Below the pieces are notes generated by a model. That model was not told the DNA's origin. It did not search any database and worked only from the letters and a program-made list of their open reading frames with translations. A program made the translations under genes and the position numbers. DNA of 64,000 nucleotides from a virus: the IMG/VR virus record IMGVR_UViG_3300034198_017445, positions 1-64,000 of that record; one strand, 5' to 3'. The stretch's first letter is position 1; every line of letters begins with the position of its first letter. Positions 39,660-58,102 of the stretch are shown here, in pieces.

Positions 39660-40029
39660 AGCACACGAAAGAAGATGCTTTGACTGCGGAAACGTCACGC
39701 AGCATTCGAGCAGCATTGTGCCTGGGGTGCTCTGCAAGAAGTGCGGAAGTCAGGATACGCGACGGGTCAAGGAGGCTTCTAGTCCATCGCGCAACTATCT
39801 CAATGATCCGAAGTTCGAGAAACGAATGATTCTGTTTTTTTATTGGGCGATGTGTTGGCATCGGCAGTCTGGAGGATATCTTGCTTCCGATACGTCGCTG
39901 ATGTTGATGCACGTCACGGCGTATATTGTCGAGATGGCTGCGAACCATCCAGAGATGAAATGTTTTTTGCCCGAAGAAAACGAGGGACCGATGAGTCATC
40001 AAGCACAACCGGTTCCTCCGTCCGTTTAG
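39652..40029 (+). CDS. Small zinc-ribbon protein
   Basis: CFDCG...CKKCGS. Confidence 0.5.
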   Translation: MSEAHERRCFDCGNVTQHSSSIVPGVLCKKCGSQDTRRVKEASSPSRNYLNDPKFEKRMILFFYWAMCWHRQSGGYLASDTSLMLMHVTAYIVEMAANHPEMKCFLPEENEGPMSHQAQPVPPSV

Positions 40030-40066
40030 CGATCGGTACAACCGATCCGAAAGAAAGAGGCTTGAA

Positions 40067-40375
40067 GTGAAGACTACTATTTTGATTGGCGTGTTGTTGG
40101 CAGCGGTTCGGATTTGGCTTGGGTTTAACATCGAGCCTGAATCGTTTCGCTGGGACCAAGTCTTCAAGGACGCGGCGCACTTGTTCATGGGTGGTCTTGC
40201 TGTCGCGTGGTGGTTCAATAGGTATGAGCTGACCGACGAAGACTGGGACGATACCGAGGACAACAGTGCTCTGTTTGAGGCGCTGACGTGGTGTCTTTTG
40301 CAACCGTGGCAATGGTGGTTGTTTTGGTCGCTTAACGCGATTGAGGTTGCTGTCGCTGTCCTGAGTCGAATCTAG
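40067..40375 (+). CDS. Small membrane protein
   Basis: Three hydrophobic segments. Confidence 0.55.
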   Translation: MKTTILIGVLLAAVRIWLGFNIEPESFRWDQVFKDAAHLFMGGLAVAWWFNRYELTDEDWDDTEDNSALFEALTWCLLQPWQWWLFWSLNAIEVAVAVLSRI

Positions 40376-40677
40376 CTTGCTCAGCGGCTTTGTTGCGGAG
40401 ATGGGTCGGTTACGCATGCCTGCTCGGAGGCGTTGTTTCTGAGGCGATAGACGCGCGTTCGCTTCGTGCCTGTCCTGAGGCTTTGTATCTGGAATAGAAG
40501 CCGCTAGTGAACCTGCCTGGAGGTTTTGTTTCCTTGACGGAATTGAGTCTGGCTTATTGCCTATCAAGCGGCGTAATTGCTTGGAGTGCGATCCATTTGA
40601 GCCTGCCATGAGGCTTTGTTTCGTGGACAGGAATTCAGCATGATACAATGCCTGCCTAGCGGCTTTGTTGCTGGGAT
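40375..40677 (+). CRISPR. Orphan degenerate type V-M-like array: 7 structure-conserved 28-nt repeats
   Basis: Repeats start at 40375, 40418, 40468, 40511, 40559, 40601 and 40650; pattern GCC-TG-N6-GGC-N5-N-N6'-AY; spacers 15, 22, 15, 20, 14, 21 nt. Confidence 0.85.
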
Positions 40678-40708
40678 CATTCGAATCTAATACCAAGCGA
40701 GGCAGGTA

Positions 40709-41272
40709 ATGGCACGAGTAATTCGTTGGCGGTTTACGAAGGAGGCTGGTACCAATGGATCCAGTTTTAAGGCCGATGCCATAACCCAGGTGATGATCCC
40801 TCGGTTCCTGCGGTACTGGGATGTGGATTTCCAGCAGTTGACAACGATGGCAGGAACGCCACACGTCACGTTTCGGCTGACGACTCGGACGGTCAGTACG
40901 ATGTGGACGAACGGTCCGGTGATCCATATAAACGCCAAGTTCAAATGGGGCACTTCGCTCGCGGCGCGTGAGCAAATGGGACTGTGCCTATGTCATGAGG
41001 TTGGTCACTGGTTGTCGCCATCGAATCCGATTCACGCTGCCAGTGTTGGAAACGTCATGTTCGCTCAGGTTGGCGATCCGTACCTAAATTGGACGCTGGT
41101 CGACATGAAGTGGTTTGGCATGCTTCCGTGGCGATCCACCTTACGTCCGTGGCACGAGAAAACGCACTGGTATCCCTTACCAAAGGTTGCAATGGGGCTG
41201 TCGGGGCATGAAGATCACGAGATTCTGGAGCCTATCGTGCTTGGTTGCGGTAAGAATCATCGAAAAAATTGA
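40709..41272 (+). CDS. Zinc metallopeptidase (metzincin/matrixin-like)
   Basis: CHEVGHWLSPSNPIH...NVM (HExxH, third His, Met-turn). Confidence 0.7.
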   Translation: MARVIRWRFTKEAGTNGSSFKADAITQVMIPRFLRYWDVDFQQLTTMAGTPHVTFRLTTRTVSTMWTNGPVIHINAKFKWGTSLAAREQMGLCLCHEVGHWLSPSNPIHAASVGNVMFAQVGDPYLNWTLVDMKWFGMLPWRSTLRPWHEKTHWYPLPKVAMGLSGHEDHEILEPIVLGCGKNHRKN

Positions 41273-41305
41273 GACGTTTTGGCGTTCGTCTCGGCTTAGT
41301 ATGTG
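41271..41305 (+). promoter_or_regulatory. GAGAC-N15-TCGGCT motif copy
   Basis: TGAGACGTTTTGGCGTTCGTCTCGGCTTA is identical to the 43843 copy. Confidence 0.7.
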
Positions 41306-41339
41306 TGCTTGGTTCTGCTCTTACTTTTGGAGTTTCAAA

Positions 41340-41756
41340 GTGTCTCACGTTGCTACTGTCGATGTTGTCATCAAGGATCTGGATTGTCTTCAAAAGGCAG
41401 CGGAATCGCTTGGTCTTGTGTTCAATCGGGACGCGAAGACGTTCTACTCGTATCAGTCTGGGCTGACCTGCGATCACTCGCTGTCGGTCAAGGAAAAGCA
41501 AGCGAACCCGAATCGCCGACCGTATGAGATCGGAGTCGTGAAGGGAGAGGGTGGTTACTCCCTCCAATTCGATCCGTTCAACCATGGCTATGGCTTGTGT
41601 CCCTACATCGAGTCGGAACCTGCAAAGGGCGACGCTGGAAAACTGGTACAGGCTTACGCTCTGGAGGTTGCCAAGAAGCAGGCTCGGATGCAGGGTTTTT
41701 TGGTTCGCGAGGTTCGCGCTGCAAACGGTGCGGTGACATTGACGCTGTCGCGATAG
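41340..41756 (+). CDS. DUF1257 (Ycf35-like) protein
   Basis: SHVATVDVVIKDLDCLQKAAESLG...YEIGV...YSLQFD...LVQAYA. Confidence 0.75.
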   Translation: MSHVATVDVVIKDLDCLQKAAESLGLVFNRDAKTFYSYQSGLTCDHSLSVKEKQANPNRRPYEIGVVKGEGGYSLQFDPFNHGYGLCPYIESEPAKGDAGKLVQAYALEVAKKQARMQGFLVREVRAANGAVTLTLSR

Positions 41757-41811
41757 TTTCGCGGCGGTTGGTTTGGTTGGTTTCTGTCGGCATCAAATTG
41801 GAAATAAAATC

Positions 41812-42006
41812 ATGAGCGAACAAATCAAGATCGAGATAAGTCCTGTAGGCGCGGTGAAGGTGTCGGTTCAGGGCGTTGCTGGTTCCGGTTGCAAAGATCT
41901 AACCAAAGCGATTGAGGCGTCTCTGGGGGTCGTGACTGAGGACACAAAAACGGGGGAATTTTACCAGACGGCAAAGGCTGGTCAGGTGGTTACCCAAGGA
42001 GGGTAG
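41812..42006 (+). CDS. DUF2997 family protein
   Basis: IKIEISPVGAVKVSVQGVAGSGCKDLTKAIEASLG. Confidence 0.8.
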   Translation: MSEQIKIEISPVGAVKVSVQGVAGSGCKDLTKAIEASLGVVTEDTKTGEFYQTAKAGQVVTQGG

Positions 42007-42007
42007 T

Positions 42008-42271
42008 GTGGCTGGAGATCAGTTTCGGGGTGATCACTATTTTGAGGTCTATGCGCGTCGAAACATCGGGGGCGTGCGTAGCTCTGTGACCTGGGTTGTT
42101 AAGGTCCGGTCCATGGCGAGGTTCCAGGCTCATTGCCGGTGCTATCGTGATTCCGAGAAAATGCTGGAGCACTCTCCTGGCTGGCTTTTGGTCGTCACTG
42201 AAATTAATGAGACGACTTTCGATCGCATGCGGCTATTAGGATATGGTCGCGAGTTTGAGTTCGTCGGTTAA
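42008..42271 (+). CDS. Hypothetical protein
   Basis: GGAGG RBS; GTG start. Confidence 0.45.
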   Translation: MAGDQFRGDHYFEVYARRNIGGVRSSVTWVVKVRSMARFQAHCRCYRDSEKMLEHSPGWLLVVTEINETTFDRMRLLGYGREFEFVG

Positions 42272-42290
42272 CGGGAGCTGTGCTGTGGAA

Positions 42291-42524
42291 ATGCAAATTC
42301 GGTTTGGTGGTGACGGGGTGGTGACAGCGGTTTACGCGGATGACCTGATGCCAGTCCTGAGTTCGATCGGCGGGACATCCATCGTTCGGGCTTCCAACGT
42401 GGAGCCCGTTGAGGGTGGCTGGGAGGTCGCCATAGTCGACGGTCCGAAGTTCGGTCCGATCGTGCGTCGCGATGATGCGATCGCTGCTGAGGTCCAATGG
42501 TTGCGTGATAACGGGAGAGCGTAA
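42291..42524 (+). CDS. Small conserved protein (RASxVEP family)
   Basis: IVRASNVEP...GPKFGP...RDDAIAAEVQWL, recalled as a neighbour of DUF1257/DUF2997/AAA genes. Confidence 0.6.
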   Translation: MQIRFGGDGVVTAVYADDLMPVLSSIGGTSIVRASNVEPVEGGWEVAIVDGPKFGPIVRRDDAIAAEVQWLRDNGRA

Positions 42525-43336
42525 TGTTTCGGGATGTTGTGTCACATATTGAAACGCATGAGCAGTATCATGCGAGGCGTGAGCTGTCGACTTCGATGGT
42601 CAAGGACTGGATTCATTCGCCAGAAATGTACCATCGTCGGAACGTTCTCGGCATCAAGAAAAAAGCCACTGATCCTATGGATTTTGGTAATGCGGTGCAC
42701 GAAGACCAGTTGTTGTCAATTTGGGAGCAGACTTACATTGTCATTCCCAAGGAGGTACTGGCTACCAACGGTGCGCGTCGTGGTAACGCTTGGGATGCGT
42801 TCAAGGCAGCGAACGAAGGAAAGGTTTTACTCAAAGAGCAGGACGTTGCTGATTTGGTTGCTATTCGCGAATCGATCGCTGCAAACCCGGACGCGAGGTA
42901 TCTCCTGGAGTCCGAGGGTCTGTCGGAAGTTTCCCTGGTTGGCTGGGCAGATCTTCCCGGCGAGGAGGGTGCTGGTACTCACTACCGTGGCAGGCTTGAT
43001 CGTGTCATGCAGGCTGGTGAGCGTAGGATCGTTGACCTGAAAACGACCGGCGACATGAGTCCACGGGCGATGCGGTACAAACCGTTGGATTCGTGCTGGG
43101 ATATTTCCGGCATGGCTTACTCGAAAATGTGGGAGGCGATGACCGGCGAATTATTGCCGGTGGATTTTATCGTCGTCGAGACGTGCGAGCCGTATCGGGT
43201 TGAGGTATACTCACCTAGCAAAGCGACGCTTGCGATGGCTTTGGATCGCTGGCTTGAGGCTGTTATCGGCATCCAGTCGGCTGTCGCAAATGGGTACTGG
43301 CATCGTGACGGTTACCCTGCGAGAATCATGTTTTAG
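42524..43336 (+). CDS. RecE-like PD-(D/E)XK exonuclease (DUF3799-like)
   Basis: YHA...STSMVK...SPEMY, MDFGNAVH, RGRLDR, IVDLKTT, FIVVE. Confidence 0.85.
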   Translation: MFRDVVSHIETHEQYHARRELSTSMVKDWIHSPEMYHRRNVLGIKKKATDPMDFGNAVHEDQLLSIWEQTYIVIPKEVLATNGARRGNAWDAFKAANEGKVLLKEQDVADLVAIRESIAANPDARYLLESEGLSEVSLVGWADLPGEEGAGTHYRGRLDRVMQAGERRIVDLKTTGDMSPRAMRYKPLDSCWDISGMAYSKMWEAMTGELLPVDFIVVETCEPYRVEVYSPSKATLAMALDRWLEAVIGIQSAVANGYWHRDGYPARIMF

Positions 43337-43367
43337 TTTGTGATCTTGTTTTTCTGGGAGTGCTTGT

Positions 43368-43736
43368 ATGGCTGATGAAGTCAAAGATGAATCTGTTGTT
43401 TTGTCCGGCGCTGCTGGCGCTGCGTTGTCTTTCGAGAAGGTGCTTCGCGAAAACCTGGACACTCATGACGAAATGTTCTTGTCCGATGCGAAGCCGTTGC
43501 TTCTCGGGCATCGGTTTGTCGATGCGGTTGTCAACGCTCTGAAAGCCTTGACTGGTCAAAGTCTCGCAAGTCTCAACAAGGAAGACGCTCTTGCTTTGGT
43601 TGCGAAAATGTACGACGAATACATTTCGAAGATCGATCTTCCCGGTCCGTTCGACAGTTTTATCCATCCGATGATCAAGAACATCGCCCTGGTTATGATC
43701 GGTCGTGTTTTCGACTCGTTGAAAAAACCGGCGTAG
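43368..43736 (+). CDS. Hypothetical protein
   Basis: GGAG RBS; IDLPGPFD motif. Confidence 0.5.
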   Translation: MADEVKDESVVLSGAAGAALSFEKVLRENLDTHDEMFLSDAKPLLLGHRFVDAVVNALKALTGQSLASLNKEDALALVAKMYDEYISKIDLPGPFDSFIHPMIKNIALVMIGRVFDSLKKPA

Positions 43737-43751
43737 TTCGCAGTACAATGA

Positions 43752-43833
43752 TTCCGATGGCGATAAGCAGGTACGGACGACTTGCTTCGCTAGCGCACCT
43801 GGGTTACTCCCGTTTCCCAGGTGCGTTTTTTTT
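43752..43833 (+). ncRNA. Candidate small RNA: two hairpins, with a terminator loop antisense to the AAACGGGAG RBS motif
   Basis: TACAAT at 43744; hairpin GCGATAAGCAGGT/ACTTGCTTCGC; stem CGCACCTGGG/CCCAGGTGCG with loop TTACTCCCGTTT and a T8 tail. Confidence 0.5.
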
Positions 43834-43843
43834 GCGCTGGCGT

Positions 43844-43872
43844 GAGACGTTTTGGCGTTCGTCTCGGCTTAT
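43844..43872 (+). promoter_or_regulatory. GAGAC-N15-TCGGCT motif copy
   Basis: Upstream of the ERF gene. Confidence 0.7.
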
Positions 43873-43913
43873 GTATTAGTGGTGTTCTGTTTTTCACGTT
43901 CTGGAGTCTGGCT

Positions 43914-44873
43914 ATGAGTGTTGTTGTCGAAAACGGAGTTATGGTGTTCGAGGACGGCGCGTTGATGCAGACCGTCGATATCAATTTGCTATTGCAAGGG
44001 TTGCATGCGTTCCACGCTGAGTGTCCGAAAGTATTCAAGTCGGAATGGAACAAACAGCTAAGTTCGTACTATGCGGATCTGGCTACGATCTTGGATACGA
44101 TCAGTCCGTTTCTTGTGAAGTCTGGACTGGTGTTGACCCAGGCGGCGTTTGGTAACAATCTCGCGACGACTCTGTATCACACGTCCGGTCAGTGGATGCG
44201 AGTGACGACCAAGTTCGAGGTTCTTGATGCTGTGAGGTATCGCACGGGGGATAAAGGCGAGATCGATGTTCGCGGTGTCACTCCGCAGACCTACGGTTCT
44301 GCTCTGACCTATGCGCGTCGATACGCAGTGGGTTCGATCCTAAGTCTCACGATCGATTCGGATGACGACGGCAATGGTGGGCAGGGCGACGATCCGCGTC
44401 GACGCTACTCGGGAAATTCACCTGGAAGAACAATGAACCAGAACTCTGCTCCGAAGGCTGGAAGTGCGAAGCCTGCGGACGCAAATCCAAAGATCGAAGT
44501 TCCAAAGGCTGACGTTGCTCCTGCGAAGATTGAGCCGTTGTCGAACGCGAAGATTTCCGAGATCGTGACTCGAATCGGCGAAAGCACTCTGGAGAAGATG
44601 CCTGCATGCGAGGCTGCGTTGACGAGGTACGGTTCATCATCGTCTATCACCAAGGCGTTGTGGGGGGATTTGATCGATGTTTTATTGGGTCGCTGGATAT
44701 CCTTGGAGTCTGTCGATGGTGTTGAGGCTTTGCGTGCAAAAGTGACCGCCTACGGTGGTCGTAGTTTGCTTCCGAACGAAACAGTTGTACGGCTGATTGG
44801 TGCCATCGATGAGCGTATCGCGGTGAACCAGGAGCCACAAGAAAAGGTCGAGGGGTCATCCGATGGTCAGTGA
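43914..44873 (+). CDS. ERF-family single-strand annealing protein
   Basis: YADLATILDTISPFL...GL, LYHTSGQW, PQTYGSALTYARRYA, DDDGN. Confidence 0.9.
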   Translation: MSVVVENGVMVFEDGALMQTVDINLLLQGLHAFHAECPKVFKSEWNKQLSSYYADLATILDTISPFLVKSGLVLTQAAFGNNLATTLYHTSGQWMRVTTKFEVLDAVRYRTGDKGEIDVRGVTPQTYGSALTYARRYAVGSILSLTIDSDDDGNGGQGDDPRRRYSGNSPGRTMNQNSAPKAGSAKPADANPKIEVPKADVAPAKIEPLSNAKISEIVTRIGESTLEKMPACEAALTRYGSSSSITKALWGDLIDVLLGRWISLESVDGVEALRAKVTAYGGRSLLPNETVVRLIGAIDERIAVNQEPQEKVEGSSDGQ

Positions 44874-45768
44874 TGAAAAAGAGAGAATTGTCCAGGTCGA
44901 TATTGCGGATCTGGTTTTGGATCAAAGGCTTCAAGCGAGGGCCGAGGTTGACCGTGTTGTCATCGACGACTACAGCGAGGGGTGGAAGGACCAGGAAAAG
45001 TTCCCTCCGATTCGAATCATCGTCGTGGACGGATCCAAGTACGTTGTCGACGGTTTTTTGCGGGTCATGTCTGCGTCGAACGCTGGCGTGATTTCAGTTC
45101 CAGCGGTCGTTAAGCCAGGAACGTGGGACGATGCGGTTGCTTTTGCGGTTGGAGCCAACGCGAAGCATGGCGCTAGAAGGTCGTCTGCTGACAAGCGAAA
45201 GGCTGTCACGATGGCTATCACTCAGTGGCCTGATCGGAGCGATCGGCTGATTGCTGGGATGGTCAAAGTTTCTGTTCCGTTGGTTGGTTCGGTGCGGTCG
45301 AAGTTGGGGAAGAAAAGCCCATCAAAGCACAACGGCGTCGATGCAAAAAGGAAAGAAAAGGCGGAGCGAGCGAGCAGAAAAAAGGCTGCATCGGTTGTCA
45401 ACGTTTCAGAGGCTGGCAGTTCGATCGTCTCGCTTGCTGATGTGGCGCACGTCACGAAATGCCCGGAGTGCAATTGTCCGGAGTTCGTGCTGGACGATGG
45501 TGGCAAAACCTGCAGTGCATGCTTGCGACCGGTGGTTCCTGGCGACGCTGCTACTCCACTTGATTCGGTTCCTGCTGTCGCTGCGGATCCTGTTGTCGAG
45601 GCTCCGACTGTCGATTCCGAGACTGGGTCCGGGAAGGTGAAAGGGATCAGCGGTACCAAGGCTGCGGCGCGTAAGTCGCTAGGCGAGTTGGTCCGTTTGT
45701 GTGATCGCATGAAGATTTACGAACAGGCTCGCGAGCATTTGAATGCTCTGTCTCAAATCATTGGATAG
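44863..45768 (+). CDS. ParB/Srx-like domain protein with a C-terminal zinc ribbon
   Basis: QARAEVD...FPPIRI...VVDGFLRV...NAKHGARRSSADKRKAV...SDRLIA. Confidence 0.75.
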   Translation: MVSDEKERIVQVDIADLVLDQRLQARAEVDRVVIDDYSEGWKDQEKFPPIRIIVVDGSKYVVDGFLRVMSASNAGVISVPAVVKPGTWDDAVAFAVGANAKHGARRSSADKRKAVTMAITQWPDRSDRLIAGMVKVSVPLVGSVRSKLGKKSPSKHNGVDAKRKEKAERASRKKAASVVNVSEAGSSIVSLADVAHVTKCPECNCPEFVLDDGGKTCSACLRPVVPGDAATPLDSVPAVAADPVVEAPTVDSETGSGKVKGISGTKAAARKSLGELVRLCDRMKIYEQAREHLNALSQIIG

Positions 45769-45788
45769 TTTCAGGAGGGGGGTGGCTG

Positions 45789-47402
45789 GTGAGTGCGATC
45801 GATGCGTCAAAAAACTGGGATCACCAAAATCGGGCGAAGCATGAAACTGCCCAGGCTCGTGCTGAAGGATGCAAGTCATCGCTGGTGGTTGCTCCGTGCG
45901 GCGCTGGCAAGTCTCGGATCATGATGCAGCTTACTCACGAGGAGGTTGCTCGTGGTGGTTCGGTCAGGATCTACGTCCATCGGACGATGCTTCGCGAGCA
46001 ATTGTCTCGTGACTTTACGGCTGCGGGAATAAGCCACGGGTTGATGGCTGCGGGTGCTGAGGTCGACGAGTCGAAGCCTGTTCAGATTTGTATGGCTGAT
46101 TCTGTTTACTCGCGTGCTATCGTGCGTTCCAAGTGGTCGCTTGGAAGTCCAAGTTTGGTGATGGTCGACGAGTCCCACAATCAAACCGGGAACACGTTAC
46201 GATCGATTCTGTTCGGTGGCACCAACGCTGGAGGCTTTACTTGGCAAGGGCACATTCAAACTGGAGCTGATTGCATTGGTTTCACGGCTACTCCGGTCAA
46301 CTGCGAAAAAATCTACGACCGAATCATTGAGTGCGGTTCGTACTCTGAGATGCGTCGGGTAGGGGCTCACAGTATGGTCCGGGTGTATTCTCCATCGGAG
46401 ATTGACTGCGCTGGGTTGGCTCGAAATGCTGACTATGAGTTTTCAAGTTCGGCGTTGTCTGATCGCGCGGTTCGCATCTTCGGAAACTGCTACGACTCGT
46501 GGAAGAAGTTAAATCCTGATTGCTATCCGTCGCTGCTGTACGCTCCCTCGGTTCAGTCGTCGCGTTGGTTTGCGGAGGAGTGGGCAAAGAAAGGCGTGAT
46601 GGTCGCGCACATCGACGGTGAGACGTGCATGCTTCCGGTCCGTAAAAACGGCGAGGTTCATCTTGAAACTTACGAGTCGGACGAAGAAGCCAGAAAGCAA
46701 CTTTTGGAAGGTTCGAAAAGTGGCGAGATTGCTCTGATTTGCAATCGGTTTGTGTTGCGAGAGGCGATCGATATGCCATGGATCCGTCACGGCATTGCGG
46801 CGACCGTGTTTGGTGGTATTTCATCCTACCTGCAGTCGGTTGGTCGGATCCAGCGGTTCAGTCCTGCGTATCCATACAAGGTCTGGCAATGTCACGGAGG
46901 TTCGTTCTTTCGGCATGGTAGCCCGAACGCAGACCGCGACTGGGAGTTGGGTTGCACGAACAAGTCTTGCGCTCAGGGGCGTGCTGAAAAAATCGCGAAG
47001 TCTGAAAACCCGCAGGACGTCGAGGGTATCTGTTGTCCGAAGTGCTCCGTCTGGAGGCAGTATGGACCGCGATGCCCTGGCTGCGGTCATTCTCACAAGC
47101 TGTCGGTGCGCGTGGTGCAGCAGGTCAGCGGCGAGTTAAAGTTGATGCGTGGCGTCGTTAACAAGGTGAAAAGCAAAGCAAAGGCGAAAACTCCTGATAA
47201 AATATGGACGAGCGTTTTGTGGGGAAGTGCCAAGCGGGACCGTTCCGTTTCGTCGGCTGTGGCTTTGTATCGGGCTCGTTGTGCGAAGGAGGGGGTCTAC
47301 TGCGACATCACCAAGTTGCGGTTTGCACCACCTGCTCCAAATTCATCCGATTGGCATCTCTCGGTACGAACGGTTTATCCATGGTTGGGTGGTGCTGGAT
47401 GA
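45789..47402 (+). CDS. Superfamily 2 DNA helicase (DEAD/DEAH-like) with Zn finger
   Basis: APCGAGKS, MVDESH, GFTATP, EAIDMP, QSVGRIQR, CPKC/CPGC. Confidence 0.9.
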   Translation: MSAIDASKNWDHQNRAKHETAQARAEGCKSSLVVAPCGAGKSRIMMQLTHEEVARGGSVRIYVHRTMLREQLSRDFTAAGISHGLMAAGAEVDESKPVQICMADSVYSRAIVRSKWSLGSPSLVMVDESHNQTGNTLRSILFGGTNAGGFTWQGHIQTGADCIGFTATPVNCEKIYDRIIECGSYSEMRRVGAHSMVRVYSPSEIDCAGLARNADYEFSSSALSDRAVRIFGNCYDSWKKLNPDCYPSLLYAPSVQSSRWFAEEWAKKGVMVAHIDGETCMLPVRKNGEVHLETYESDEEARKQLLEGSKSGEIALICNRFVLREAIDMPWIRHGIAATVFGGISSYLQSVGRIQRFSPAYPYKVWQCHGGSFFRHGSPNADRDWELGCTNKSCAQGRAEKIAKSENPQDVEGICCPKCSVWRQYGPRCPGCGHSHKLSVRVVQQVSGELKLMRGVVNKVKSKAKAKTPDKIWTSVLWGSAKRDRSVSSAVALYRARCAKEGVYCDITKLRFAPPAPNSSDWHLSVRTVYPWLGGAG

Positions 47403-47683
47403 AAACTATGAAAAAGAACGATCGTGTCGAAAATGCGTTGCGTGCCGTCGAAGCACGGGGGAGGATCGATATGGTGATCGGTGCGTTCGGGATGATCGAG
47501 GCGACTGAGGCGATCAAAGAAATCAAGCGTGATGCTGATTCGTCTCAAAAATCCATCGAGGCCGAGGAGGAAAGTTACCGCGCTGCGTTCTCGCGTTCGT
47601 TTGCTCATGCGATCGACGCGTGCTTGGCTGCTGACGACTTTCGGACGGTCGAGGAGATGCGTCGTGCCTGTCTGGGAGAATGA
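47399..47683 (+). CDS. Hypothetical protein
   Basis: ATGA coupling after the helicase. Confidence 0.45.
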   Translation: MKTMKKNDRVENALRAVEARGRIDMVIGAFGMIEATEAIKEIKRDADSSQKSIEAEEESYRAAFSRSFAHAIDACLAADDFRTVEEMRRACLGE

Positions 47684-48080
47684 CGACTACGATCCGTTGC
47701 GTTACTACGATGATATCCGGCGTGAGATTCGGTCATGCTGGTACTGCAATGCTGAGCGTGCTCCTGTATGGTGGTATGCTCCCTGGCTGATCGAGCGTGC
47801 TCACATCGTCAACAAACCGCGTAGGACCGATCGGCGAGTGGTTGTGATGCTTTGCTCGACTTGCCATAAGCGATCGCACGGCGAGCGATTCTCGGGGGTT
47901 GATTGGCCTATTTTGTCAGTTGCGAATATGTTGTGGCTGAAACTCAATCTCGATCCTGATTGGTGGGATCCTGCGTTCCTGCAGAAGCAATCGATTCGCC
48001 GTTTGCCCGAGCCCGAGATGCCTGCAAAGTTCCAGTTGCAAATCCCAGGAGGGGACGTCCGTGGGAAACCTAATAAGTGA
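47670..48080 (+). CDS. HNH-like zinc-binding protein (start uncertain)
   Basis: CWYC...ERAHIV...LCSTCHKRSH. Confidence 0.55.
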   Translation, partial: VWENDDYDPLRYYDDIRREIRSCWYCNAERAPVWWYAPWLIERAHIVNKPRRTDRRVVVMLCSTCHKRSHGERFSGVDWPILSVANMLWLKLNLDPDWWDPAFLQKQSIRRLPEPEMPAKFQLQIPGGDVRGKPNK

Positions 48081-48495
48081 TCTAGATCGTCCTGGTCGCG
48101 AGTTCTCGATTCGGCTTCCGTGGCCTGACCGCAGGCTGCATGCGCAGACTCGGGGGAGTCGCTGGAAGAAAATATCGGCGACCACGGCTGCTCGCGAGGC
48201 GGCGTTCATGCTCGGGCAAGCCGAAAAGCAAAAGGCGACGGTGCGGCTTCCCATCGAAGTGTGCGAGGTGTCGTATCTGTTCGTCATGCCGTCCAAAACG
48301 CGGAGAGACGTTGCAAACCTGATCCAGTCCTGCAAGCCTTTTATCGACGGGCTGGTTGATGCTGGCATTGTTTCCGGGGATGATTGGACAAAAATGCGGA
48401 TCGCTGGCGCTGATGCGATTGTGGCTAAATCGCGGCATTCTGCGGGGGTGGTCATAAAATTCGAAGAATTATTGCCGTGGTGCGCCTCAGATTGA
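48061..48495 (+). CDS. RusA-like Holliday junction resolvase
   Basis: LPWP...RRDVANLIQSCKPFIDGLVDAGIVSGDD. Confidence 0.8.
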   Translation: MGNLISDLDRPGREFSIRLPWPDRRLHAQTRGSRWKKISATTAAREAAFMLGQAEKQKATVRLPIEVCEVSYLFVMPSKTRRDVANLIQSCKPFIDGLVDAGIVSGDDWTKMRIAGADAIVAKSRHSAGVVIKFEELLPWCASD

Positions 48496-48589
48496 GGTTG
48501 CTTTGGCCGATAAGTGTATGTACATTAAGTGCATCGATCGACGGGGTTGTCGGTCAGGTTCGGTGGGTTGGAAAACGGGAGATCTGGCA

Positions 48590-49090
48590 ATGGCTGCATC
48601 ATTTGAAGTCGATGTTTTGGATGTGGATTTTGATGCTGTGCGTCGCGCTGCGGCGTTCAGCTTGCGAACGAACCAAGGAGTGTGCTCGTTTGCGGACGCG
48701 GATGACGTTGCTCAGGAAACTGCGATTGCGGTGATGAACGGCTATGTGAGCGTTCAGTGGAAAAGCCGGAACATCGCTAGGAATTTGCGAAGCAAAGAAA
48801 AGCTGGCGAAGAAGCGTGAGATGGGCGCTGCTGTGCGTCGATCCGAGTCGGCTAGCGATGTCGATCCGTTGTCGCAGTTGATTGCTCTTGAGAACGATTC
48901 CATGGTCTGGTCGGTTGTAGAAAAGCTCCCTACTTTTCATTGTTGGGTGATCATGGCTCGGTATCGCGATGGGATGACTATCAGCGAATGCGTGGACGCG
49001 AGTGGGTGGTGCCGTGGAAAGGTTACGCGAGCCATTGCCGAGGCTTTGGTGATGCTGCGGGATGAATTGGCAGACTTTGTCGCCGAGTAG
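48590..49090 (+). CDS. ECF-like sigma-70 factor
   Basis: Region 2 DADDVAQET; region 4 LP...VIMARYRDGMTISEC...GKVTRAIAEALVMLR; GGGAG RBS. Confidence 0.75.
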   Translation: MAASFEVDVLDVDFDAVRRAAAFSLRTNQGVCSFADADDVAQETAIAVMNGYVSVQWKSRNIARNLRSKEKLAKKREMGAAVRRSESASDVDPLSQLIALENDSMVWSVVEKLPTFHCWVIMARYRDGMTISECVDASGWCRGKVTRAIAEALVMLRDELADFVAE

Positions 49091-49149
49091 CGTGGTGGTT
49101 GCTACAATCCAAGGCATCTAATTTTGGGTGCCTGAACGGGAGAAGTAGC

Positions 49150-50433
49150 ATGGACTGGGTTTCGCGAATTGTTGGTCACGAGAAGGTTGCTGCAGGTCAG
49201 TTGCTTGCCAATCCATTTAATCATCGGCAGCATCCCAAGGCTCAGCGGGATGTTGTTGCGGCATCGATCGAGGAGTTGGGGTTCGTCAAATCGGTCATCG
49301 TGAACCGAACGACCGGTCACATCGTCGACGGTCACGAACGGGTGATGCAGGCGCTGGGTGTTGGCGAAGAGACGATGGTCGACGTGGAGTACGTCTCTCT
49401 GACCTTGGATGAAGAACGCAAGGCTTTGTTGATTCTTGATGCGTCGTCTGAGATGGCGAAGGTGGACGCGGATCTCTTGCGTGAGCTGGTCAATGTGACC
49501 GAGTTCAATCTCCCTGCCCTGGACGGGCTCATGCAGGACATGATGGCGTCGGCTGGCGTGAAGGTCACGATTCCCCCTGGCGACGACGATCTTCCGGAAC
49601 CACCAGACGAGCCAATCGCGCGGCTGGGTGATCTTTGGATCCTCGGGGACCATCGGGTGATCTGTGGCGACTGTACGGACAGCGGCGTCGTTTCTCGGTT
49701 GCTCAACGGCGTTATGCCAGTGCTCATGGTGACCGATCCTCCGTATGGGGTCGAGTACGATCCATCGTGGCGAAACGAAGCGGGGCTGGGAAGTACCGAG
49801 CGTACTGGCGTGGTGCTCAACGACGATCGTGCGGACTGGACGGAAGCGTGGCTTCTGTTCCCTGGTCCGGTGGCTTACGTTTGGCATGGTGCGCTTCATG
49901 CTTCGGAAGTGGAGCAGTCGCTGGTAAAGGCTTCATTTGAAGTTCGCTCGCAGATTATTTGGGCGAAGCCGAGGGCGGCGATCAGTCGTGGCGCGTACCA
50001 CTGGGGGCATGAACCGGCGCTCGTGGCTTCCCGTGGAGAGCAGTCGATCGAGCCAGATGAATCGACGGATCAAGACGGCGAGCACGGTTGGTACTGTGTG
50101 CGAAAAGGTGCCAAGGCGTACTGGTGCGGCGGTCGGAAGCAATCGACGGTCTGGAATATCGGATTCGCTGGCGAGGTGAAGTCTGAGCACGGTACGCAGA
50201 AACCGGTCGCGTGCATGGCGAGGCCGATGATGAATCACGGGAGACCTGGGGATGTGGTCTACGATCCGTTCCTCGGGTCGGGCACATCGGTTATTGCAGC
50301 CATGCGGTCGAAGCGAGTATGCTATGGGTGCGAGCTGAATCCAGCATACGTCGATCTAATCGTGCGTCGCTGGCAAAACATCACGGGCCTGCAGGCTCAA
50401 GTGGTGCGTCAAACCGAAGAGGTTGAAGCGTGA
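49150..50433 (+). CDS. ParB-like N-terminus fused to an N6A/N4C DNA methyltransferase
   Basis: NPFNHRQH...IVDGHER; TDPPYG; HGTQKPV; DPFLGSGTS; GCELNPAYVD. Confidence 0.9.
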   Translation: MDWVSRIVGHEKVAAGQLLANPFNHRQHPKAQRDVVAASIEELGFVKSVIVNRTTGHIVDGHERVMQALGVGEETMVDVEYVSLTLDEERKALLILDASSEMAKVDADLLRELVNVTEFNLPALDGLMQDMMASAGVKVTIPPGDDDLPEPPDEPIARLGDLWILGDHRVICGDCTDSGVVSRLLNGVMPVLMVTDPPYGVEYDPSWRNEAGLGSTERTGVVLNDDRADWTEAWLLFPGPVAYVWHGALHASEVEQSLVKASFEVRSQIIWAKPRAAISRGAYHWGHEPALVASRGEQSIEPDESTDQDGEHGWYCVRKGAKAYWCGGRKQSTVWNIGFAGEVKSEHGTQKPVACMARPMMNHGRPGDVVYDPFLGSGTSVIAAMRSKRVCYGCELNPAYVDLIVRRWQNITGLQAQVVRQTEEVEA

Positions 50434-50981
50434 CGAAGCGCTCGAAAAAGCATAAACAAAAAGCCGGACTGTCACCTGCTCTAGAACATACGACGGGCGG
50501 AAATCGCGAACCGCTTGAGTCACGTAAGAGCCAGATAGCGACAGGCGTTAAACCCCAAACTGAGGATGAGGCGTATCGGGCATTCTGGCCAGAGTTTGCT
50601 CCAGGCATGGAGAAAATAGCCGAGTCAACAGGGAGGGGTGGAGCGTATCAACGTATGTCGGATATGGCACTGGCAATCCGTGCCGTGTCCGACTCGTTTC
50701 CAGTTCCTCGGGCAGCGGTGGAGCGTTTGGTGTTCGATGTCATTCGGCAATCGACCGATCCTTCGCTTACCCTGGAACAGAGGCAGCGGTCGCAGAAACT
50801 GCTGTCTCGCATGATCGAACGGAACGCGGCACCGAAGGGGTTGCCCGACCAACTGCAAACCTTGCCTGGGCAAGTACTCTCTATTCAGCAGGTGCTCGAC
50901 GTGATCGATGTGGACGATAACGATATCGACCTGCGGGACTTCAAACCGGCAATCGGATCCGATGAGGATTATGCCGAATGA
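50430..50981 (+). CDS. Putative terminase small subunit
   Basis: Helical ORF coupled directly upstream of terL. Confidence 0.5.
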   Translation: MTKRSKKHKQKAGLSPALEHTTGGNREPLESRKSQIATGVKPQTEDEAYRAFWPEFAPGMEKIAESTGRGGAYQRMSDMALAIRAVSDSFPVPRAAVERLVFDVIRQSTDPSLTLEQRQRSQKLLSRMIERNAAPKGLPDQLQTLPGQVLSIQQVLDVIDVDDNDIDLRDFKPAIGSDEDYAE

Positions 50982-52501
50982 CTGCGGTCGCTGGCTGGAC
51001 GGATCAGTTCGGATCGGAAAGCGTACATTCGCACGAGCGCCAAAGTAACGCAGCCAGGGAGTTGTATCTGGACGCACAGGCGATGCGTTCTCCGTTGTTG
51101 CTGGCTGAACGGTTTTCTCGTGGCGAGTGGAAGCGTGCGCGGCACTTGCAGTTCATCGACTGGGAATTCAGAAATCTGCTGAAGTCTCGGGATATCGACC
51201 TGCTGATCATCAAATGCCCTGTCCGTCACGGAAAGAGCCAGTATCTAGCGCGGTGGGCTCCTGCTTGGTACCTGCTCCGGAATCCGCACAAACGGGTCAT
51301 GATCTGTACCGCGACGGCTTCGCTGGCATCGTCTCACTCGCGTTGGGTGCGGGACAAGTTCCATGAGTTGGCTTCGCTCATGCAAATGAAGGGCGTTGAT
51401 CCTACGCATGCTTCTGTGAAGGACTGGGGTATCGACATTCCTGGCGGGGGTGGTGCGTTGGCTGCAGGTGTCGGCACGTCCATCGTCGGCTTCGGCGCGA
51501 ATTTGCTGATCATCGACGATTACCTGAAAGACGCAAAATCGGCGTTCTCTCCAAAGATCCGGGACGACCAATGGGACTGGTTTCTGTCGACCAGTTCGAC
51601 GCGGTTGGAGCCTGGGGGGAAGTTAATTCTTCTCTGTACTGCTTGGCATTCGGACGATCTCATCGGTCGCATCTTGAAACACAGAAAAGAGCTAGATATG
51701 CGGGTGCGTTGCGTCACTCTGCAGGCGTTGCGTGATTCGTCGTATGGCGTTCACGATCCTTTGTGTCGGCAGGATGGCGAGGCGCTTTGGCCTGAGAGAT
51801 GGCCTGTCGAGGTCATGGAGCGTCGGAAGCGCCAGGCTGGTATGTGGTGGCACTCGATCTACCAGGGAACGCCAAAGGGGACGGGGCTTTCATCCTGGCC
51901 TGATGCGTACTTCTCGAATATTTGGGCGGATGACGACGAGTGGCCTAGTCCGGAGGAAGGCGTTCTGTCGGCTTCATTCCTCGATCCATCGAAGGGGAAG
52001 AATTCGAAAGTCGGGGATTATTCCGCGATCGTGTCTGTGGTTTACGCAAAGGGTAAGCTGTGGGTGGATTCCTCGATCGATCGTCGATCCGTGCAGGTGA
52101 TGGTTCGGGAGTGGATGGAGTTCAACCGGGCGCGTCGTATCGCTTTCCAGGGGGTCGAGGGTAATGCGTGGCAGGATTTGCTCGCTGAGGACTACGTCGA
52201 GGAGTGTTTGCGGCACGGGTATCAAATCGATCCTCCTGAATGCGTGATTCACACGACGAACAAAAACCTGCGGATCGAAAAGATCGGGAAGTGGTTGGAC
52301 GGTCGGTTGCTTCGGTTTCGTCGGACGGCTTCGAACGAGTTGCTCCTTGCCCAGATGCGGGAGTTTCCGTTCGGGCAATACGACGACGGTCCGGACGGTC
52401 TGGAGGCTGCGATCGCGCTGCTGTGTCGATCTGTCGATGCGTTGTCGGATGCTCACGACATCGAGGAGAGCGATGCGACGGTTGGTACCAGACCGCTATG
52501 A
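50978..52501 (+). CDS. terL: Terminase large subunit
   Basis: Walker A CPVRHGKS; Walker B LLIIDD; WHSDDLIG; YQGTP; nuclease motifs DPS, GVEGN, YDDGPDG. Confidence 0.93.
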   Translation: MTAVAGWTDQFGSESVHSHERQSNAARELYLDAQAMRSPLLLAERFSRGEWKRARHLQFIDWEFRNLLKSRDIDLLIIKCPVRHGKSQYLARWAPAWYLLRNPHKRVMICTATASLASSHSRWVRDKFHELASLMQMKGVDPTHASVKDWGIDIPGGGGALAAGVGTSIVGFGANLLIIDDYLKDAKSAFSPKIRDDQWDWFLSTSSTRLEPGGKLILLCTAWHSDDLIGRILKHRKELDMRVRCVTLQALRDSSYGVHDPLCRQDGEALWPERWPVEVMERRKRQAGMWWHSIYQGTPKGTGLSSWPDAYFSNIWADDDEWPSPEEGVLSASFLDPSKGKNSKVGDYSAIVSVVYAKGKLWVDSSIDRRSVQVMVREWMEFNRARRIAFQGVEGNAWQDLLAEDYVEECLRHGYQIDPPECVIHTTNKNLRIEKIGKWLDGRLLRFRRTASNELLLAQMREFPFGQYDDGPDGLEAAIALLCRSVDALSDAHDIEESDATVGTRPL

Positions 52502-52556
52502 TGTCGGCTGTGTGAGCAGTGGGGCGGGATAATTCTGTGAAAGAGGGGGGTGACCC

Positions 52557-52838
52557 ATGGACGAGGCTGCTATCAAGAATCGGATTTTGGAGCTGGCGAA
52601 ACAATCGAACGCTTCGATCGCTTCGGGGTACATGGACGAGCTGATTTCCGTCTGGCGAAGGGGGTATTCAGACCGGATGCCTGGGTGGGTGGCTGATCTT
52701 TTGCCGGTAAAGACGCTGGAGAATCGTGTCTATCGCGACGGTCACTGGGAAGCGAGAGTGTTTCTGTCTGGGTTTTTGTGTCTCGGGCGAACGAAGATCG
52801 TCTACAAAAAAGATCGAAAAGGCGGGTCTGGAAATTAA
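52557..52838 (+). CDS. Hypothetical protein
   Basis: GAGG RBS. Confidence 0.5.
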   Translation: MDEAAIKNRILELAKQSNASIASGYMDELISVWRRGYSDRMPGWVADLLPVKTLENRVYRDGHWEARVFLSGFLCLGRTKIVYKKDRKGGSGN

Positions 52839-52938
52839 ATCAGGAAATTGTCGATCGTTCGCGCCCTGATTCGGCGTGGATCCAGCCATGACTAACGTGG
52901 GGCAGTGGTTGCCCTGGTTTTTCCTGGAGGATTCGCAA

Positions 52939-53346
52939 ATGCTTAGTTCGACTTTTGTTCTTGGTGGTAAGGCTGTTTTCACGGTGTCCAATCCTTCCGG
53001 CGTGCGATACACGTATCGGGTGAAGGCGAGCAAGGGGCCAAATCCAAAGTTTTTTGCTCAACTCTTGGCTGGTCCTGACAACACCAGCGATTACGTCTAT
53101 TTGGGCGTGGTTGATACCTTTTCCGGTTCGGTGCGGCTTACTGAAAAGTCGAGGATGACCGGGGATTCGCTTCCAGTGAAGGTTCTACGCTGGTCGCTTG
53201 GCAAGTGCTGGCAAGGCGGCGATCTTCCTGAAGGCTACTCGATCCATCATGAGGGTTGCTGTGGTCGCTGCGGTCGGGCGCTCACGGTTCCCGAGTCGGT
53301 AGAAAGTGGTTTCGGGCCTGAGTGCATCAAGCTGGTTGGTGGTTGA
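52939..53346 (+). CDS. DUF6011-type Zn-finger protein
   Basis: GPDNTSDYVYLG; CGRCGRALTVPESVESGFGPEC. Confidence 0.75.
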   Translation: MLSSTFVLGGKAVFTVSNPSGVRYTYRVKASKGPNPKFFAQLLAGPDNTSDYVYLGVVDTFSGSVRLTEKSRMTGDSLPVKVLRWSLGKCWQGGDLPEGYSIHHEGCCGRCGRALTVPESVESGFGPECIKLVGG

Positions 53347-53381
53347 GGTTTTCAAAAACCCTGGTTTTTCATTGGTCAAAC

Positions 53382-53403
53382 GAAGTGTAAATTTTTACAC
53401 TTC
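53382..53403. repeat. 22-bp near-palindrome, inverted copy of 30740-30761
   Basis: GAAGTGTAAATTTTTACACTTC is the exact reverse complement of GAAGTGTAAAAATTTACACTTC. Confidence 0.8.
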
Positions 53404-53437
53404 CCTTCTGTCTCTGTGGTTGTGGAGGGTTTGTAAT

Positions 53438-53731
53438 ATGGGTGGTTGCAGCGTTGCTTGGTCTTTTGATGGGCGACTTTCGGAGCAGGAAGTTCGGACT
53501 GTGTTCGCGGATTTGCGACAGGCTGACCTGAAAGTGAACGGGTCGGATCCGTATTCCGGGACCGTGCATACGATTCCATCGCTCAAGTTCGTAGGGCAGG
53601 TGGCTGGCTCCTACGACGAGGCGTTCGATTTGGCGTTGGACCGCGCGGTGAAGTGGGAATATGCGATCGCTGTGAAGTATCCGAGGGACGGCAAGCTGTT
53701 CTGGTTGGTCGCTGGCTGGGCTGCGGAGTGA
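53438..53731 (+). CDS. Hypothetical protein
   Basis: GGAGG RBS; GSDPYSGT...KWEYAIAV...WLVAGWAAE. Confidence 0.6.
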   Translation: MGGCSVAWSFDGRLSEQEVRTVFADLRQADLKVNGSDPYSGTVHTIPSLKFVGQVAGSYDEAFDLALDRAVKWEYAIAVKYPRDGKLFWLVAGWAAE

Positions 53732-53796
53732 CGGGCTGGCTGGTTCGGTCGCTGAAAAGATTCCCCAGAAATGACCTTATTTTTGTATTTACGGTA

Positions 53797-53824
53797 TTGA
53801 CGCTAAGTGTTTGGTCGTTAAGAT
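53797..53824 (+). promoter_or_regulatory. Sigma70-like early promoter TTGACG-N16-TAAGAT
   Basis: Part of a ~100 bp leader duplicated at 59738-59839. Confidence 0.65.
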
Positions 53825-53886
53825 CAATGCATGCGGACGACGGGGTGTCGGCTGCGGGGTTCGAAGTGAAACGGGAGACGTTGAAA

Positions 53887-54126: not shown

Positions 54127-54192
54127 TGTTGCTGTACTGCGAACGGATGGAATGTCGCCTGGATAGGTGGGTTTCGAAACGCGGGGTGCGAT

Positions 54193-56343: not shown

Positions 56344-58092
56344 TTGAGCGTTAAAAACTGGGTCTATGGTGGTAAGGTTCCTACGCCACAAGAGGCTGTC
56401 GATGAGGCGATCTTCACGGCGCACAAGTATCGAAACAAGCTGTGTGAGTTGGAGCTGGAAAAACGGAAGCGGCACTACGATTTGTTGCGTCGGCTTGCTC
56501 CTGAGTTTGTTGCTGCTGAGGAAACGGTCGCGACGTTGGAGGCGGCGCTGGGTGCCTGTCGCGAAAAGATCCAAGCGGAACGGGTGAAGCAGCGGACGAA
56601 AACTCCGACTGGGTGCAAGACCTGGATTGCCGAAAGTGCGGACATCAAATCGCGGTTAAAAGATGCGCGTGCAGTCTTGAAGGCTGCGAAGCATGCGGCT
56701 TACGATGATCCTGCTGTCAAGGCTGCGATGGATGCGAACAGCGAGCAGCATAAATCCGAGTGTGCTCAAGCCAAGCAGGAGTCCGGGCTGTACTGGGGGA
56801 CCGAAGCGGTGATCCGTGATTCGTGTCGATCGTTTGCGAGTGGTGCTCCACCGAAGTTTGCGCGGTATGAAGGGCGCGGTCAGTTGGCTGTCCAAGTCCA
56901 AGGCGGGATGGATTGTTCCAAGGCGATCGATGAGAACACGTTGGTCTACATCGTTGGCGAGGGTCGGAAGCGAACGGCAAAGGTTCGCATTGCTTCGGAC
57001 GGTGGGCGACCGGTGTTCGCGGATCTACCGATCGTGTTCCATCGGGACTTGCCTGACGGCGCTATCAAGTGGGCGTTCCTGCAGAAGCGGATGCGTGCGA
57101 ACAAACCGAAGTACAGCTTGCGTCTTGCGATCGACGTTGCTGATCCTGTCGATGTGCAGGTTCCTCCGGGTGAGGTTGCGATTCACGTCGGCTGGCGAAA
57201 GCACGGGGACGGATTAAAGGTCGTGACTTGGCTCGGGAGCGACGGCGAGAAAGGTTCGCTCGTGCTTCCGGCTTCTCATTGCGAGGACTATCTCAAGCTG
57301 GACAAAATCAAGTCGGAGCGTGACATCGAATTCGGAAAGGCGATTGATCATTTGCGTGGGTGGCTGGAGTGTCGTGGCGATGTGCCTGAGTTCTTGGAGG
57401 AGGTTCGATCGCACTTGCATGCGTGGAAGTCTCAGAAGCGGTTGGCTGCTCTCGTGGTGGCTTGGCGCGATGCTCGCTTCGATCCGTGGGATATTGATAT
57501 TTTCGAGTACCTGGAGGCGTGGCGAAAGAAGGACAAGCATGCATGGCAGCACGATGCTCGGTTGCGGGAGCGAATCGCTGGTCGTCGCAAAACGATCTAC
57601 CAGACGTTTCTGTGTGGTCTTGCTCGGAGGTACGGAGTGGCGATCGTTGCTCCGATCGATGCGAAGGAGTTGACCGAAAACAGCGAGCCAGAAGACTTGA
57701 CGGCGGATCCAACGTTGCAGCATCGGCGTGCGAAGTGGGCTGCTGTATCGACGCTGATTCAGTACGCTCGCGAAAAATGGCCTGAACGCTGCATCGAAGT
57801 GGACGGTGCGAACATGAGTCGCCAGTGCATGCGGTGCGGTCACGTCAACGAACCGCAAGGCAAGCGGGTGCAGTGCCATGGTTGCGGTGCTACTTGGGAT
57901 GTGGACATCAACGCGGCTACGGTTATGCTCGAACGTGGTCAGGCTGCGGCGCGTGATGGTGCTCTTGATGCGTTGGTTGAAGCGAAGGAAAAGAAAGCCG
58001 AGGCTGCTCGCGAGAAACTTGCAAAGATGATACAGGCGCGGCGTGATGCTTCTGCTCGCAAGCGTGCTGAGATGGAGGGCAGCGAGGCTTAG
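56344..58092 (+). CDS. cas12m: Type V-M Cas12m-like (TnpB-derived) RNA-guided DNA-binding effector with a non-canonical RuvC
   Basis: 582 aa. Motifs AHKYRNKL-x-E, long coiled-coil REC, GLYWGT, PKFARYEGRGQLAVQ, WED FHRDLP. RuvC-I VAIHVGWR (His at the Asp site), RuvC-II IVAPID (no Glu), CMRC/CHGC finger, RuvC-III WDVDINAA. Adjacent to a pseudoknot repeat array. Confidence 0.88.
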   Translation: MSVKNWVYGGKVPTPQEAVDEAIFTAHKYRNKLCELELEKRKRHYDLLRRLAPEFVAAEETVATLEAALGACREKIQAERVKQRTKTPTGCKTWIAESADIKSRLKDARAVLKAAKHAAYDDPAVKAAMDANSEQHKSECAQAKQESGLYWGTEAVIRDSCRSFASGAPPKFARYEGRGQLAVQVQGGMDCSKAIDENTLVYIVGEGRKRTAKVRIASDGGRPVFADLPIVFHRDLPDGAIKWAFLQKRMRANKPKYSLRLAIDVADPVDVQVPPGEVAIHVGWRKHGDGLKVVTWLGSDGEKGSLVLPASHCEDYLKLDKIKSERDIEFGKAIDHLRGWLECRGDVPEFLEEVRSHLHAWKSQKRLAALVVAWRDARFDPWDIDIFEYLEAWRKKDKHAWQHDARLRERIAGRRKTIYQTFLCGLARRYGVAIVAPIDAKELTENSEPEDLTADPTLQHRRAKWAAVSTLIQYAREKWPERCIEVDGANMSRQCMRCGHVNEPQGKRVQCHGCGATWDVDINAATVMLERGQAAARDGALDALVEAKEKKAEAAREKLAKMIQARRDASARKRAEMEGSEA

Positions 58093-58102
58093 GGTATGGT
58101 TC

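Follow-up and report, generated by a model that had tools for sequence, protein, structure and literature searches.

Cas12m is a compact CRISPR effector that binds DNA; it is known from plasmids and some prophages, where its arrays are of the ordinary kind. In the window analysed here, which is the whole stretch of 64,000 nucleotides at positions 1 to 64,000 of the virus record IMGVR_UViG_3300034198_017445, a preliminary description had noticed pseudoknot-forming repeats beside a gene for a Cas12m-like protein and a second set of such repeats far from it, filling the gap between two genes of another operon. The question raised by this second set, here called the small array, is whether its units are guide RNAs for the distant effector, sites acting on the mRNA in which they lie, a decoy, or the remains of a duplicated piece of the main array. 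The preliminary description had proposed a trans-acting guide cassette, possibly expressed at another stage of infection. The structure of the units, their relation to ordinary type V-M repeats and to the main array, their possible targets, and the occurrence of similar units in other Cas12m phages were examined in turn.

Structure and setting of the seven-unit array

The seven-unit stretch proved to be real. It is made up of 28-nt units spanning 40375-40677, all on the + strand (Table 1), and the units follow the pattern GCC-TG-[6 nt]-GGC-TTTGTT-[6 nt]-AY. The gaps between them are, in order, 15, 22, 15, 20, 14 and 21 nt long, giving a unit period of 42-50 nt.

Table 1. Positions of the small-array units, their neighbours and the cas12m locus in the window (R1 E, E value with covariance model R1).
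Feature	Position	Strand	Description
Upstream ORF	40067..40375	+	102 aa, hydrophobic, no family
Unit 1	40375..40402	+	S1 GCT/GGC with G-U; S2 CTCAGC/GCGGAG, 5/6 paired; R1 E 1.8e-6
Unit 2	40418..40445	+	S2 CTCGGA/TCTGAG, 6/6 paired; R1 E 2.8e-7; 15-nt spacer 5' (40403-40417)
Unit 3	40468..40495	+	R1 E 1.9e-6; 22-nt spacer 5' (40446-40467)
Unit 4	40511..40538	+	S1 ACC/GGT, compensated; 3' arm TCCTTG, imperfect; R1 E 2.4e-5; 15-nt spacer 5'
Unit 5	40559..40586	+	GCCTA variant; R1 E 1.9e-4; 20-nt spacer 5'
Unit 6	40601..40628	+	R1 E 7.9e-8; 14-nt spacer 5'
Unit 7	40650..40677	+	R1 E 2.1e-7; 21-nt spacer 5', ending GATACAAT
Post-unit-7 sequence	40678..40708	+	Possible seventh guide; runs into GAGG ribosome-binding site (40699-40702)
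Downstream ORF	40709..41272	+	187 aa, HEVGH motif, no family
cas12m	56344..58092	+	582 aa; profile matches to Cas12m structures
Main array	58103..59685	+	26 units, same family as the small array; starts 10 nt after cas12m

The fold of the unit is an H-type pseudoknot, in which two complementary 6-nt blocks form a 6-bp helix (S2) closed by a G.A pair, and GCC pairs with GGC across the first arm of S2 to form a 3-bp helix (S1). In an ungapped alignment of the 33 candidate units of the genome (alignment A2), this pseudoknot was paired in 93.9% of the cells, compared with 68.6% in column shuffles, and none of 500 shuffles reached 93.9%. When the pairing partners were slid by 1-3 columns as a control, approximately 40% of the cells were paired. 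In addition, two-sided changes were seen in all six S2 pairs and in two of the three S1 pairs of this alignment, and the compensatory S1 pair previously reported at 40511 was correct. In the small array alone, S2 was paired in 38 of 42 cells, the weakened stems being those of unit 1 and of unit 4 (4/6 paired). G5 and A27 were each present in 28 of the 33 units. The unit is predicted to fold into the Cas12m crRNA scaffold, with its pseudoknot, its stem and the closing G.A pair.

The S2 stems vary widely, with 30 further pair types among the 33 units of this one genome compared with 21 among 23 units taken between phages; the variety inside one genome is as large as that between different phages. 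The idea that the stems differ in order to stop neighbouring units from mispairing was unsupported (permutation fraction, 0.43). A minimum-energy fold of the whole small array did not recover the unit hairpins and was uninformative.

The scan of the rest of the genome that had been proposed as a check was performed with a covariance model of the unit built with S2 only (R1). In the complete record of 74,334 bp, 33 matches with E values of 2.5e-4 or less were obtained, all on the + strand and in two clusters only, and the next-best match had an E value of 0.4. The E values of the seven small-array units ranged from 8e-8 to 2e-4. Because R1 was built from these 33 units, their scores are to be expected, and the informative results are therefore the absence of other matches in the genome and the matches in other genomes.

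No two of the 33 units are identical, and the mean column identity of their alignment is 73%. Tandem Repeats Finder gave no report on the small-array stretch, and Rfam returned no match for it either at the gathering score or at E values up to 5. The near-identical 36-nt repeats with spacers of approximately 36 nt of ordinary V-M arrays were not found in the small array. Arrays like the small one escape standard CRISPR finders and are therefore probably under-counted. The sequence itself was corroborated by a separate Logan contig. It comes from a DNA metagenome, the one public run in which the phage is present: positions 40183-41273 were covered with zero differences, and the depth was even over both arrays. 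This run may be the sample of origin. A 353-aa antisense ORF at 39914-40975 (-), which spans the small array and parts of both flanking genes, was rejected as spurious, having no family and an odd composition.

The upstream ORF resembles a gene for a small membrane protein. As had been noticed, the first unit overlaps the stop codon of this gene, whose TAG (40373-40375) shares base 1 of unit 1. The downstream gene had been described as a metallopeptidase gene; its zinc-peptidase motif was present, but no Pfam or PHROG family matched, so that this name is plausible only, and no relatives of the ORF were found in IMG/VR. The GAGG ribosome-binding site of this gene lies 22 nt beyond the end of unit 7, and the ATG 31 nt beyond it. 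Of the ERF and RecE genes said to lie nearby, ERF was located at 43821-44873, and the nuclease at 42524-43336 is recorded as PD-(D/E)XK. The small array sits in a small-gene operon upstream of these PD-(D/E)XK nuclease and ERF genes and of ParB-like and helicase genes. Co-transcription of the small array with the upstream operon is likely; it fits the layout because the array lies on the same strand, fills the gap exactly and begins within the stop codon, and no promoter- or terminator-like site was found between the flanking genes.

Cas12m, the main array and ordinary V-M repeats

The Cas12m-like protein, whose gene indeed lies approximately 16 kb from the small array, is a clear Cas12m (type V-M) with a Pfam match to Cas12f1-like_TNB. 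A profile built from ORF 56344-58092 and 26 homologues matched Cas12m of PDB 23vw (E value, 1e-132) and Cas12m2 (8hio; E value, 7e-73) over nearly the full length. RuvC-I of the phage protein is VAIHVGW, with His as in Cas12m2, and the RuvC-II position (IVAPIDAKEL) is without the acidic residue that is Asp485 in Cas12m2 and Glu in 23vw, whereas RuvC-III (DVDINAA) and the zinc finger are kept. The triad is more degraded than the His-Asp-Asp of Cas12m2. At the RuvC-II site (positions 57640-57670 of the window, residues about 430-445), a conserved acidic residue is also missing from the close clade of this protein. H233 and R234 align with H269 and R270 of Cas12m2, which read the crRNA scaffold (PMC10442227). 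The closest homologues were P0002, with 66% identity (on 91 kb), and P0004, with 56% identity (on 103 kb). No remnant of a second cas12m was found near the small array. In the 74-kb genome, cas1 and cas2 (PF01867 and PF09827) were not found although control models did match, and no tRNAs were found; no DNA relatives of the phage were found among GenBank phages.

The gaps of the main array are 9-28 nt long, and the array is interrupted by a 90-aa Cys-rich ORF (58677-58948). Immediately after unit 58638 come GGAG, 6 nt and the start codon (ATG) of this ORF, and this handle would form the 5' end of the mRNA of the ORF. A conserved hairpin (AATCGTCACGAAACT..TGACG) with a U-tract stands directly 5' of each of the last two main-array units (59520-59545 and 59626-59650). 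A like layout, a terminator-like hairpin and then a unit, was seen at 36523 of another phage record, G208.

Within the Cas12m2 scaffold, A(-2) is the partner of G(-23), and C(-22..-17) forms base pairs with G(-8..-3); nucleotides 1-7 of the 36-nt repeat are disordered, and the heteroduplex spans 17 bp (PMC10442227). The handle of GoCas12m is approximately 30 nt and contains a triplex and a pseudoknot (PMC11013384). In the phage units, the 3' arm of S2 occupies -8..-3 and is flanked by G5 and A27, which correspond to G(-23).A(-2) of Cas12m2. The phage unit and the Cas12m2 scaffold share one architecture, with a shift of a single nucleotide in the loop.

R1, although built from the units of its own phage only, also recognized ordinary arrays in IMG/VR and metagenome loci (L009-L034 and L051-L063), where they stand immediately next to cas12m homologues with 22-54% identity. 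These cas12m-adjacent arrays have identical repeats with a period of 72-75 nt, and the ordinary V-M repeat consists of an 8-nt 5' part (GTNACAAT-like) and the same 28-nt core as the phage units. Across 23 repeats from 19 ordinary loci, the pseudoknot was 98.6% paired, a value reached by none of 500 shuffles. Since R1 matches ordinary arrays that share the 28-nt core and the fold, the phage units are V-M CRISPR repeats reduced to the handle part that is held by the protein. The six bases 5' of each unit are T-rich and G-poor, several of the long gaps end in ...CAAT or ...CATT, and GATACAAT, at the end of the spacer 5' of unit 7, is similar to the 8-nt stretch with which ordinary V-M repeats begin. 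We read the T-rich tract before the units as a probable eroded 5' part of the repeat. Because the effector is Cas12m, the unit is a Cas12m handle and R1 matches ordinary arrays, the small array is a cas-distal V-M-type array.

The variants reported to recur in both arrays were all present at the places given, namely CCATGA at 40601 and 58638, CTCAGC at 40375 and 59425, GCTGGGAT at 40650 and 59425, and GCCTATCAA at 40559 and 58152. For all seven small-array units the closest neighbour lies in the main array; that of unit 1 is unit 59425 (25/28 identical). Three pairs were uniquely reciprocal (40559-58152, and 40601-58638 and 40650-59425 with 26/28 identity each), and three more were reciprocal only as ties (40468-58495, 40418-58587 and 40511-59277). 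Units 40511 and 59277 have the imperfect 3' arm TCCTTG in common, which points to common descent and not to convergence. The order of the partners is not colinear between the arrays, and the spacers and upstream flanks of partner units are unrelated. The preliminary description had explained the shared variants by exchange of units through recombination. The shared ancestry of the units was supported by the seven neighbours and the three reciprocal pairs, but given the order and the unrelated spacers, recombination is only one of several routes: unit-level recombination, gene conversion, or an old duplication followed by spacer turnover are all possible.

Targets, similar units in other phages, and the possible role of the small array

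No spacer target was found in the phage genome itself at up to 2 mismatches. Own-genome seed matches of 11, 12 and 13 nt numbered 1, 0 and 0, compared with 0.9, 0.3 and 0.07 in shuffles, showing no excess. Spacer matches in approximately 700 kb of related loci were at chance level only, and no match was found in IMG/VR for the two 18-mers searched, taken from spacers 40446 and 40539. In the genome collection, this Cas12m clade was matched only by a homologue with 44% identity, carried by a Pirellulaceae MAG on a contig of 14.9 kb, which is a lead and not a host assignment; for this reason, 201 Pirellulaceae genomes were chosen for comparison with the small array, and they yielded noise only. 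The best look-alikes among them (L071 1503-1530 and L073 1500-1527) were rejected as false positives inside coding sequence for hydrophobic membrane helices, and they are a caution for BLAST-based repeat hunts. The spacer searches had little power, with guides of approximately 14-17 nt. Guide function is something that we infer, since no target was found in the phage, in IMG/VR or in the 201 Pirellulaceae genomes.

A total of 34 cas12m loci were found in IMG/VR, and several other Cas12m phage records carry cas-distal units. In G004 (106 kb, the record of locus L023), whose Cas12m is 29% identical, an ordinary main array is present together with five extra sites: two clusters, of 5 and of 4 diverged units, whose spacing is 45-59 nt except for one 103-nt step, filling gaps between co-oriented genes, and three smaller unit sites. 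The complete 153-kb genome G207 (the record of L024/L038) has two cas12m genes and at least 37 units at at least 10 sites; their gaps measure 18-52 nt and their stems vary. G208 (L028) contains, besides several solo units, an orphan array whose four units are identical repeats spaced 66-73 nt apart, and in G209 (L020) all four solo units stand 4-21 nt before an ORF start, behind AT-rich promoter-like DNA. Of these four records from other phages, two thus carry orphan compact degenerate Cas12m arrays, and the remaining two have an orphan array or solo units.

Units located directly before a ribosome-binding site and ATG were seen at G208 36523, G002 1313, G004 15686 and unit 58638 of the phage itself; these positions support a reading, rival or additional, in which terminal handles act in cis on mRNAs. 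Furthermore, a solo handle precedes the start codon of cas12m by 44-116 nt in L013/L014 (9922), L054 (370), L060 (467) and L028 (9857), and L055 has a three-unit degenerate mini-array in the same range (9811-9946). Autoregulation has been proposed for solitary repeats upstream of cas12a, and by analogy the handles upstream of cas12m suggest that it may occur here as well. In L051-L053, whose homologues are 54% identical, a single handle follows the gene and there is no array (unit at L051 3977-4004); each would be a one-guide Cas12m locus. The contigs of these three loci are nearly identical and have no power for guide conservation.

We consider it rather probable that the small array is a second, cas-distal V-M CRISPR-like guide array, which is read through in its operon and loads the phage Cas12m. 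The seven 28-nt handles, each followed by a different 14-22-nt segment, would be extra guide RNAs, read through within the + strand small-gene operon that leads into the recombination genes. The transcript would be cut upstream of each handle, by Cas12m itself or by host RNases, and each handle with its downstream segment would load the single Cas12m of the phage. Cas12m proteins cut pre-crRNA within or upstream of the repeat and silence their targets by PAM-adjacent binding (PMC11013384, PMC10442227). The phage Cas12m would only bind PAM-adjacent DNA and thereby block transcription or replication of targets outside the phage, which may be host genes or rival elements; binding without cutting is expected because two of the three RuvC acidic residues are missing. 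With no cas1/cas2, the guides would form a fixed, inherited set, and the divergence of the repeats would keep the phage's own ERF and exonuclease recombination system from collapsing the array. Since the last unit lies so close to the ribosome-binding site, binding by Cas12m may also affect gene 40709.

The variable gaps in both arrays count against a guide function, as does the lack of a target for any spacer in the searches made. If the T-rich last 6-8 nt of each gap are eroded repeat, some guides would be only 7-15 nt long, shorter than the 17-bp heteroduplex of Cas12m2. Such gaps would suit linkers, as expected if the units were cis-acting sites at which Cas12m binds and cuts the polycistronic mRNA in which they lie, separating the cistrons on either side and governing how stable the mRNA of the next gene is or how well it is translated. 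This reading is compatible with guides. It draws on the terminal and solo units just before ribosome-binding sites and start codons in several phages, on the solo units upstream of cas12m (L013/L014, L054, L060 and L028), and on the failure of the searches made to find DNA targets. However, seven tandem handles far exceed the need of one cis site, the distance from the last unit to the ATG is larger than in the clear solo cases, and regulation of mRNA by Cas12m has never been demonstrated. We regard a purely cis-acting array as unlikely, and for seven tandem handles guides are the better explanation.

The conservation of the handles, together with spacers that show neither matches nor a length constraint, would also be in keeping with a decoy or buffer that soaks up Cas12m, either that of the phage, whose free amount would thereby be tuned, or a V-M effector of a rival or the host, much like solitary-repeat RNA anti-CRISPRs. 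Such a role is improbable to our minds: an RNA anti-CRISPR repeat mimics a system that its element does not encode, whereas both the effector and an adjoining array of 26 units were found in this phage, so that a self-decoy seems wasteful, and every spacer is unique rather than minimal. Nor do we give much credence to the array being a piece of the main array that was duplicated and is now decaying, with no present function. Degenerate repeats, the weakened stems of two units and the lack of targets in the searches made could all be explained by decay, but compensatory changes keep the pairing in both helices, all seven units are well above the R1 background, the array fits its intergenic gap exactly in a compact genome, and similar orphan arrays recur in unrelated Cas12m phages.

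Beyond this locus, a tentative extension of the guide array proposal is that Cas12m phages run a multiplexed CRISPRi-like programme, with handles that keep the fold but not the sequence, and shortened guides, spread across operons, guide sets that change with the operon being transcribed, and terminal or solo handles serving as 5'-UTR operators by which Cas12m would govern mRNAs of the phage itself; 40375-40677 would then be an early- or middle-operon module. We hold this to be possible and nothing stronger.

Comparison with known systems and implications

Ordinary V-M arrays (MmCas12m2, GoCas12m and MsCas12m; PMC10442227, PMC11013384) resemble the phage system in the effector family, in the pseudoknot and the stem with its G.A pair, in the position of the guide 3' of the handle without need of a tracrRNA, and in the non-canonical RuvC site, which implies binding without cutting. 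On the other hand, the phage repeats are non-identical, their 8-nt 5' part is eroded to a T-rich tract, and the small-array spacers are 14-22 nt long instead of approximately 36 nt. The small array also lies in an operon unrelated to cas12m, and cas1/cas2 are missing. V-M systems have been described as over-represented in plasmids and as occurring in some prophages (PMC11656645).

Viral mini-arrays and solitary repeat units (PMC11656645, PMC10120712) are likewise cas-distal and carried by virus genomes without adaptation genes, and degenerate distal repeats are common among them. Most of them have a single spacer or two, are copies of a host array and are directed against related viruses or the promoters of host cas genes, and mini-arrays of three or more repeats are rare (12 cases; PMC10120712). 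In contrast, the small array has seven units and a cognate effector encoded by the phage, and no target was found for it. Degenerate repeats and short spacers are also features of the regulatory crRNA-like RNAs CreA/CreR, scaRNA and tracr-L, for which the effector serves as a repressor and not as a nuclease (PMC10120712). These RNAs match a promoter in the same locus or genome, whereas the small array has no seed match of at least 11 nt in the phage beyond chance.

The Cas12m locus of the myxophage MV-1 (bioRxiv 10.64898/2026.09.14.751636) is similar in that a phage encodes Cas12m and an array without cas1/cas2/cas4 and no protospacers were found. MvCas12m has 610 aa and an intact DED triad, and its locus has one adjacent array with eight spacers and a single consensus repeat; that work describes neither orphan nor degenerate arrays. 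The claim made there of the first phage Cas12m conflicts with previous references to V-M in prophages (PMC11656645) and to viral proteins like Cas12m (PMC12607003), as well as with the 34 loci from IMG/VR. TIGR-Tas (bioRxiv 10.64898/2026.09.09.750476) is also reported to have guide arrays without the repeat conservation that CRISPR finders need and to carry out RNA-guided repression, but its protein family and array layout are unrelated, and the likeness is an analogy only. No description of multi-unit, structure-conserved, cas-distal Cas12m arrays was found in the literature. V-M repeats and virus-borne orphan arrays are already known; new are seven repeats that conserve their fold, have trimmed spacers and lie in an operon far from the effector.

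The phage keeps 33 fold-only handles with very short spacers, some at the cas12m locus and the others in an unrelated operon, and it has no way to take up new spacers. Should the units be functional guides, they would constitute a hard-wired set of RNA-guided repressors, that is, a natural multiplexed CRISPRi tied to the transcription programme. They would also show the lower limit of Cas12m guide length, and would mean that nearly any S2 stem is accepted in the handle, which would be useful for guide arrays that do not recombine.
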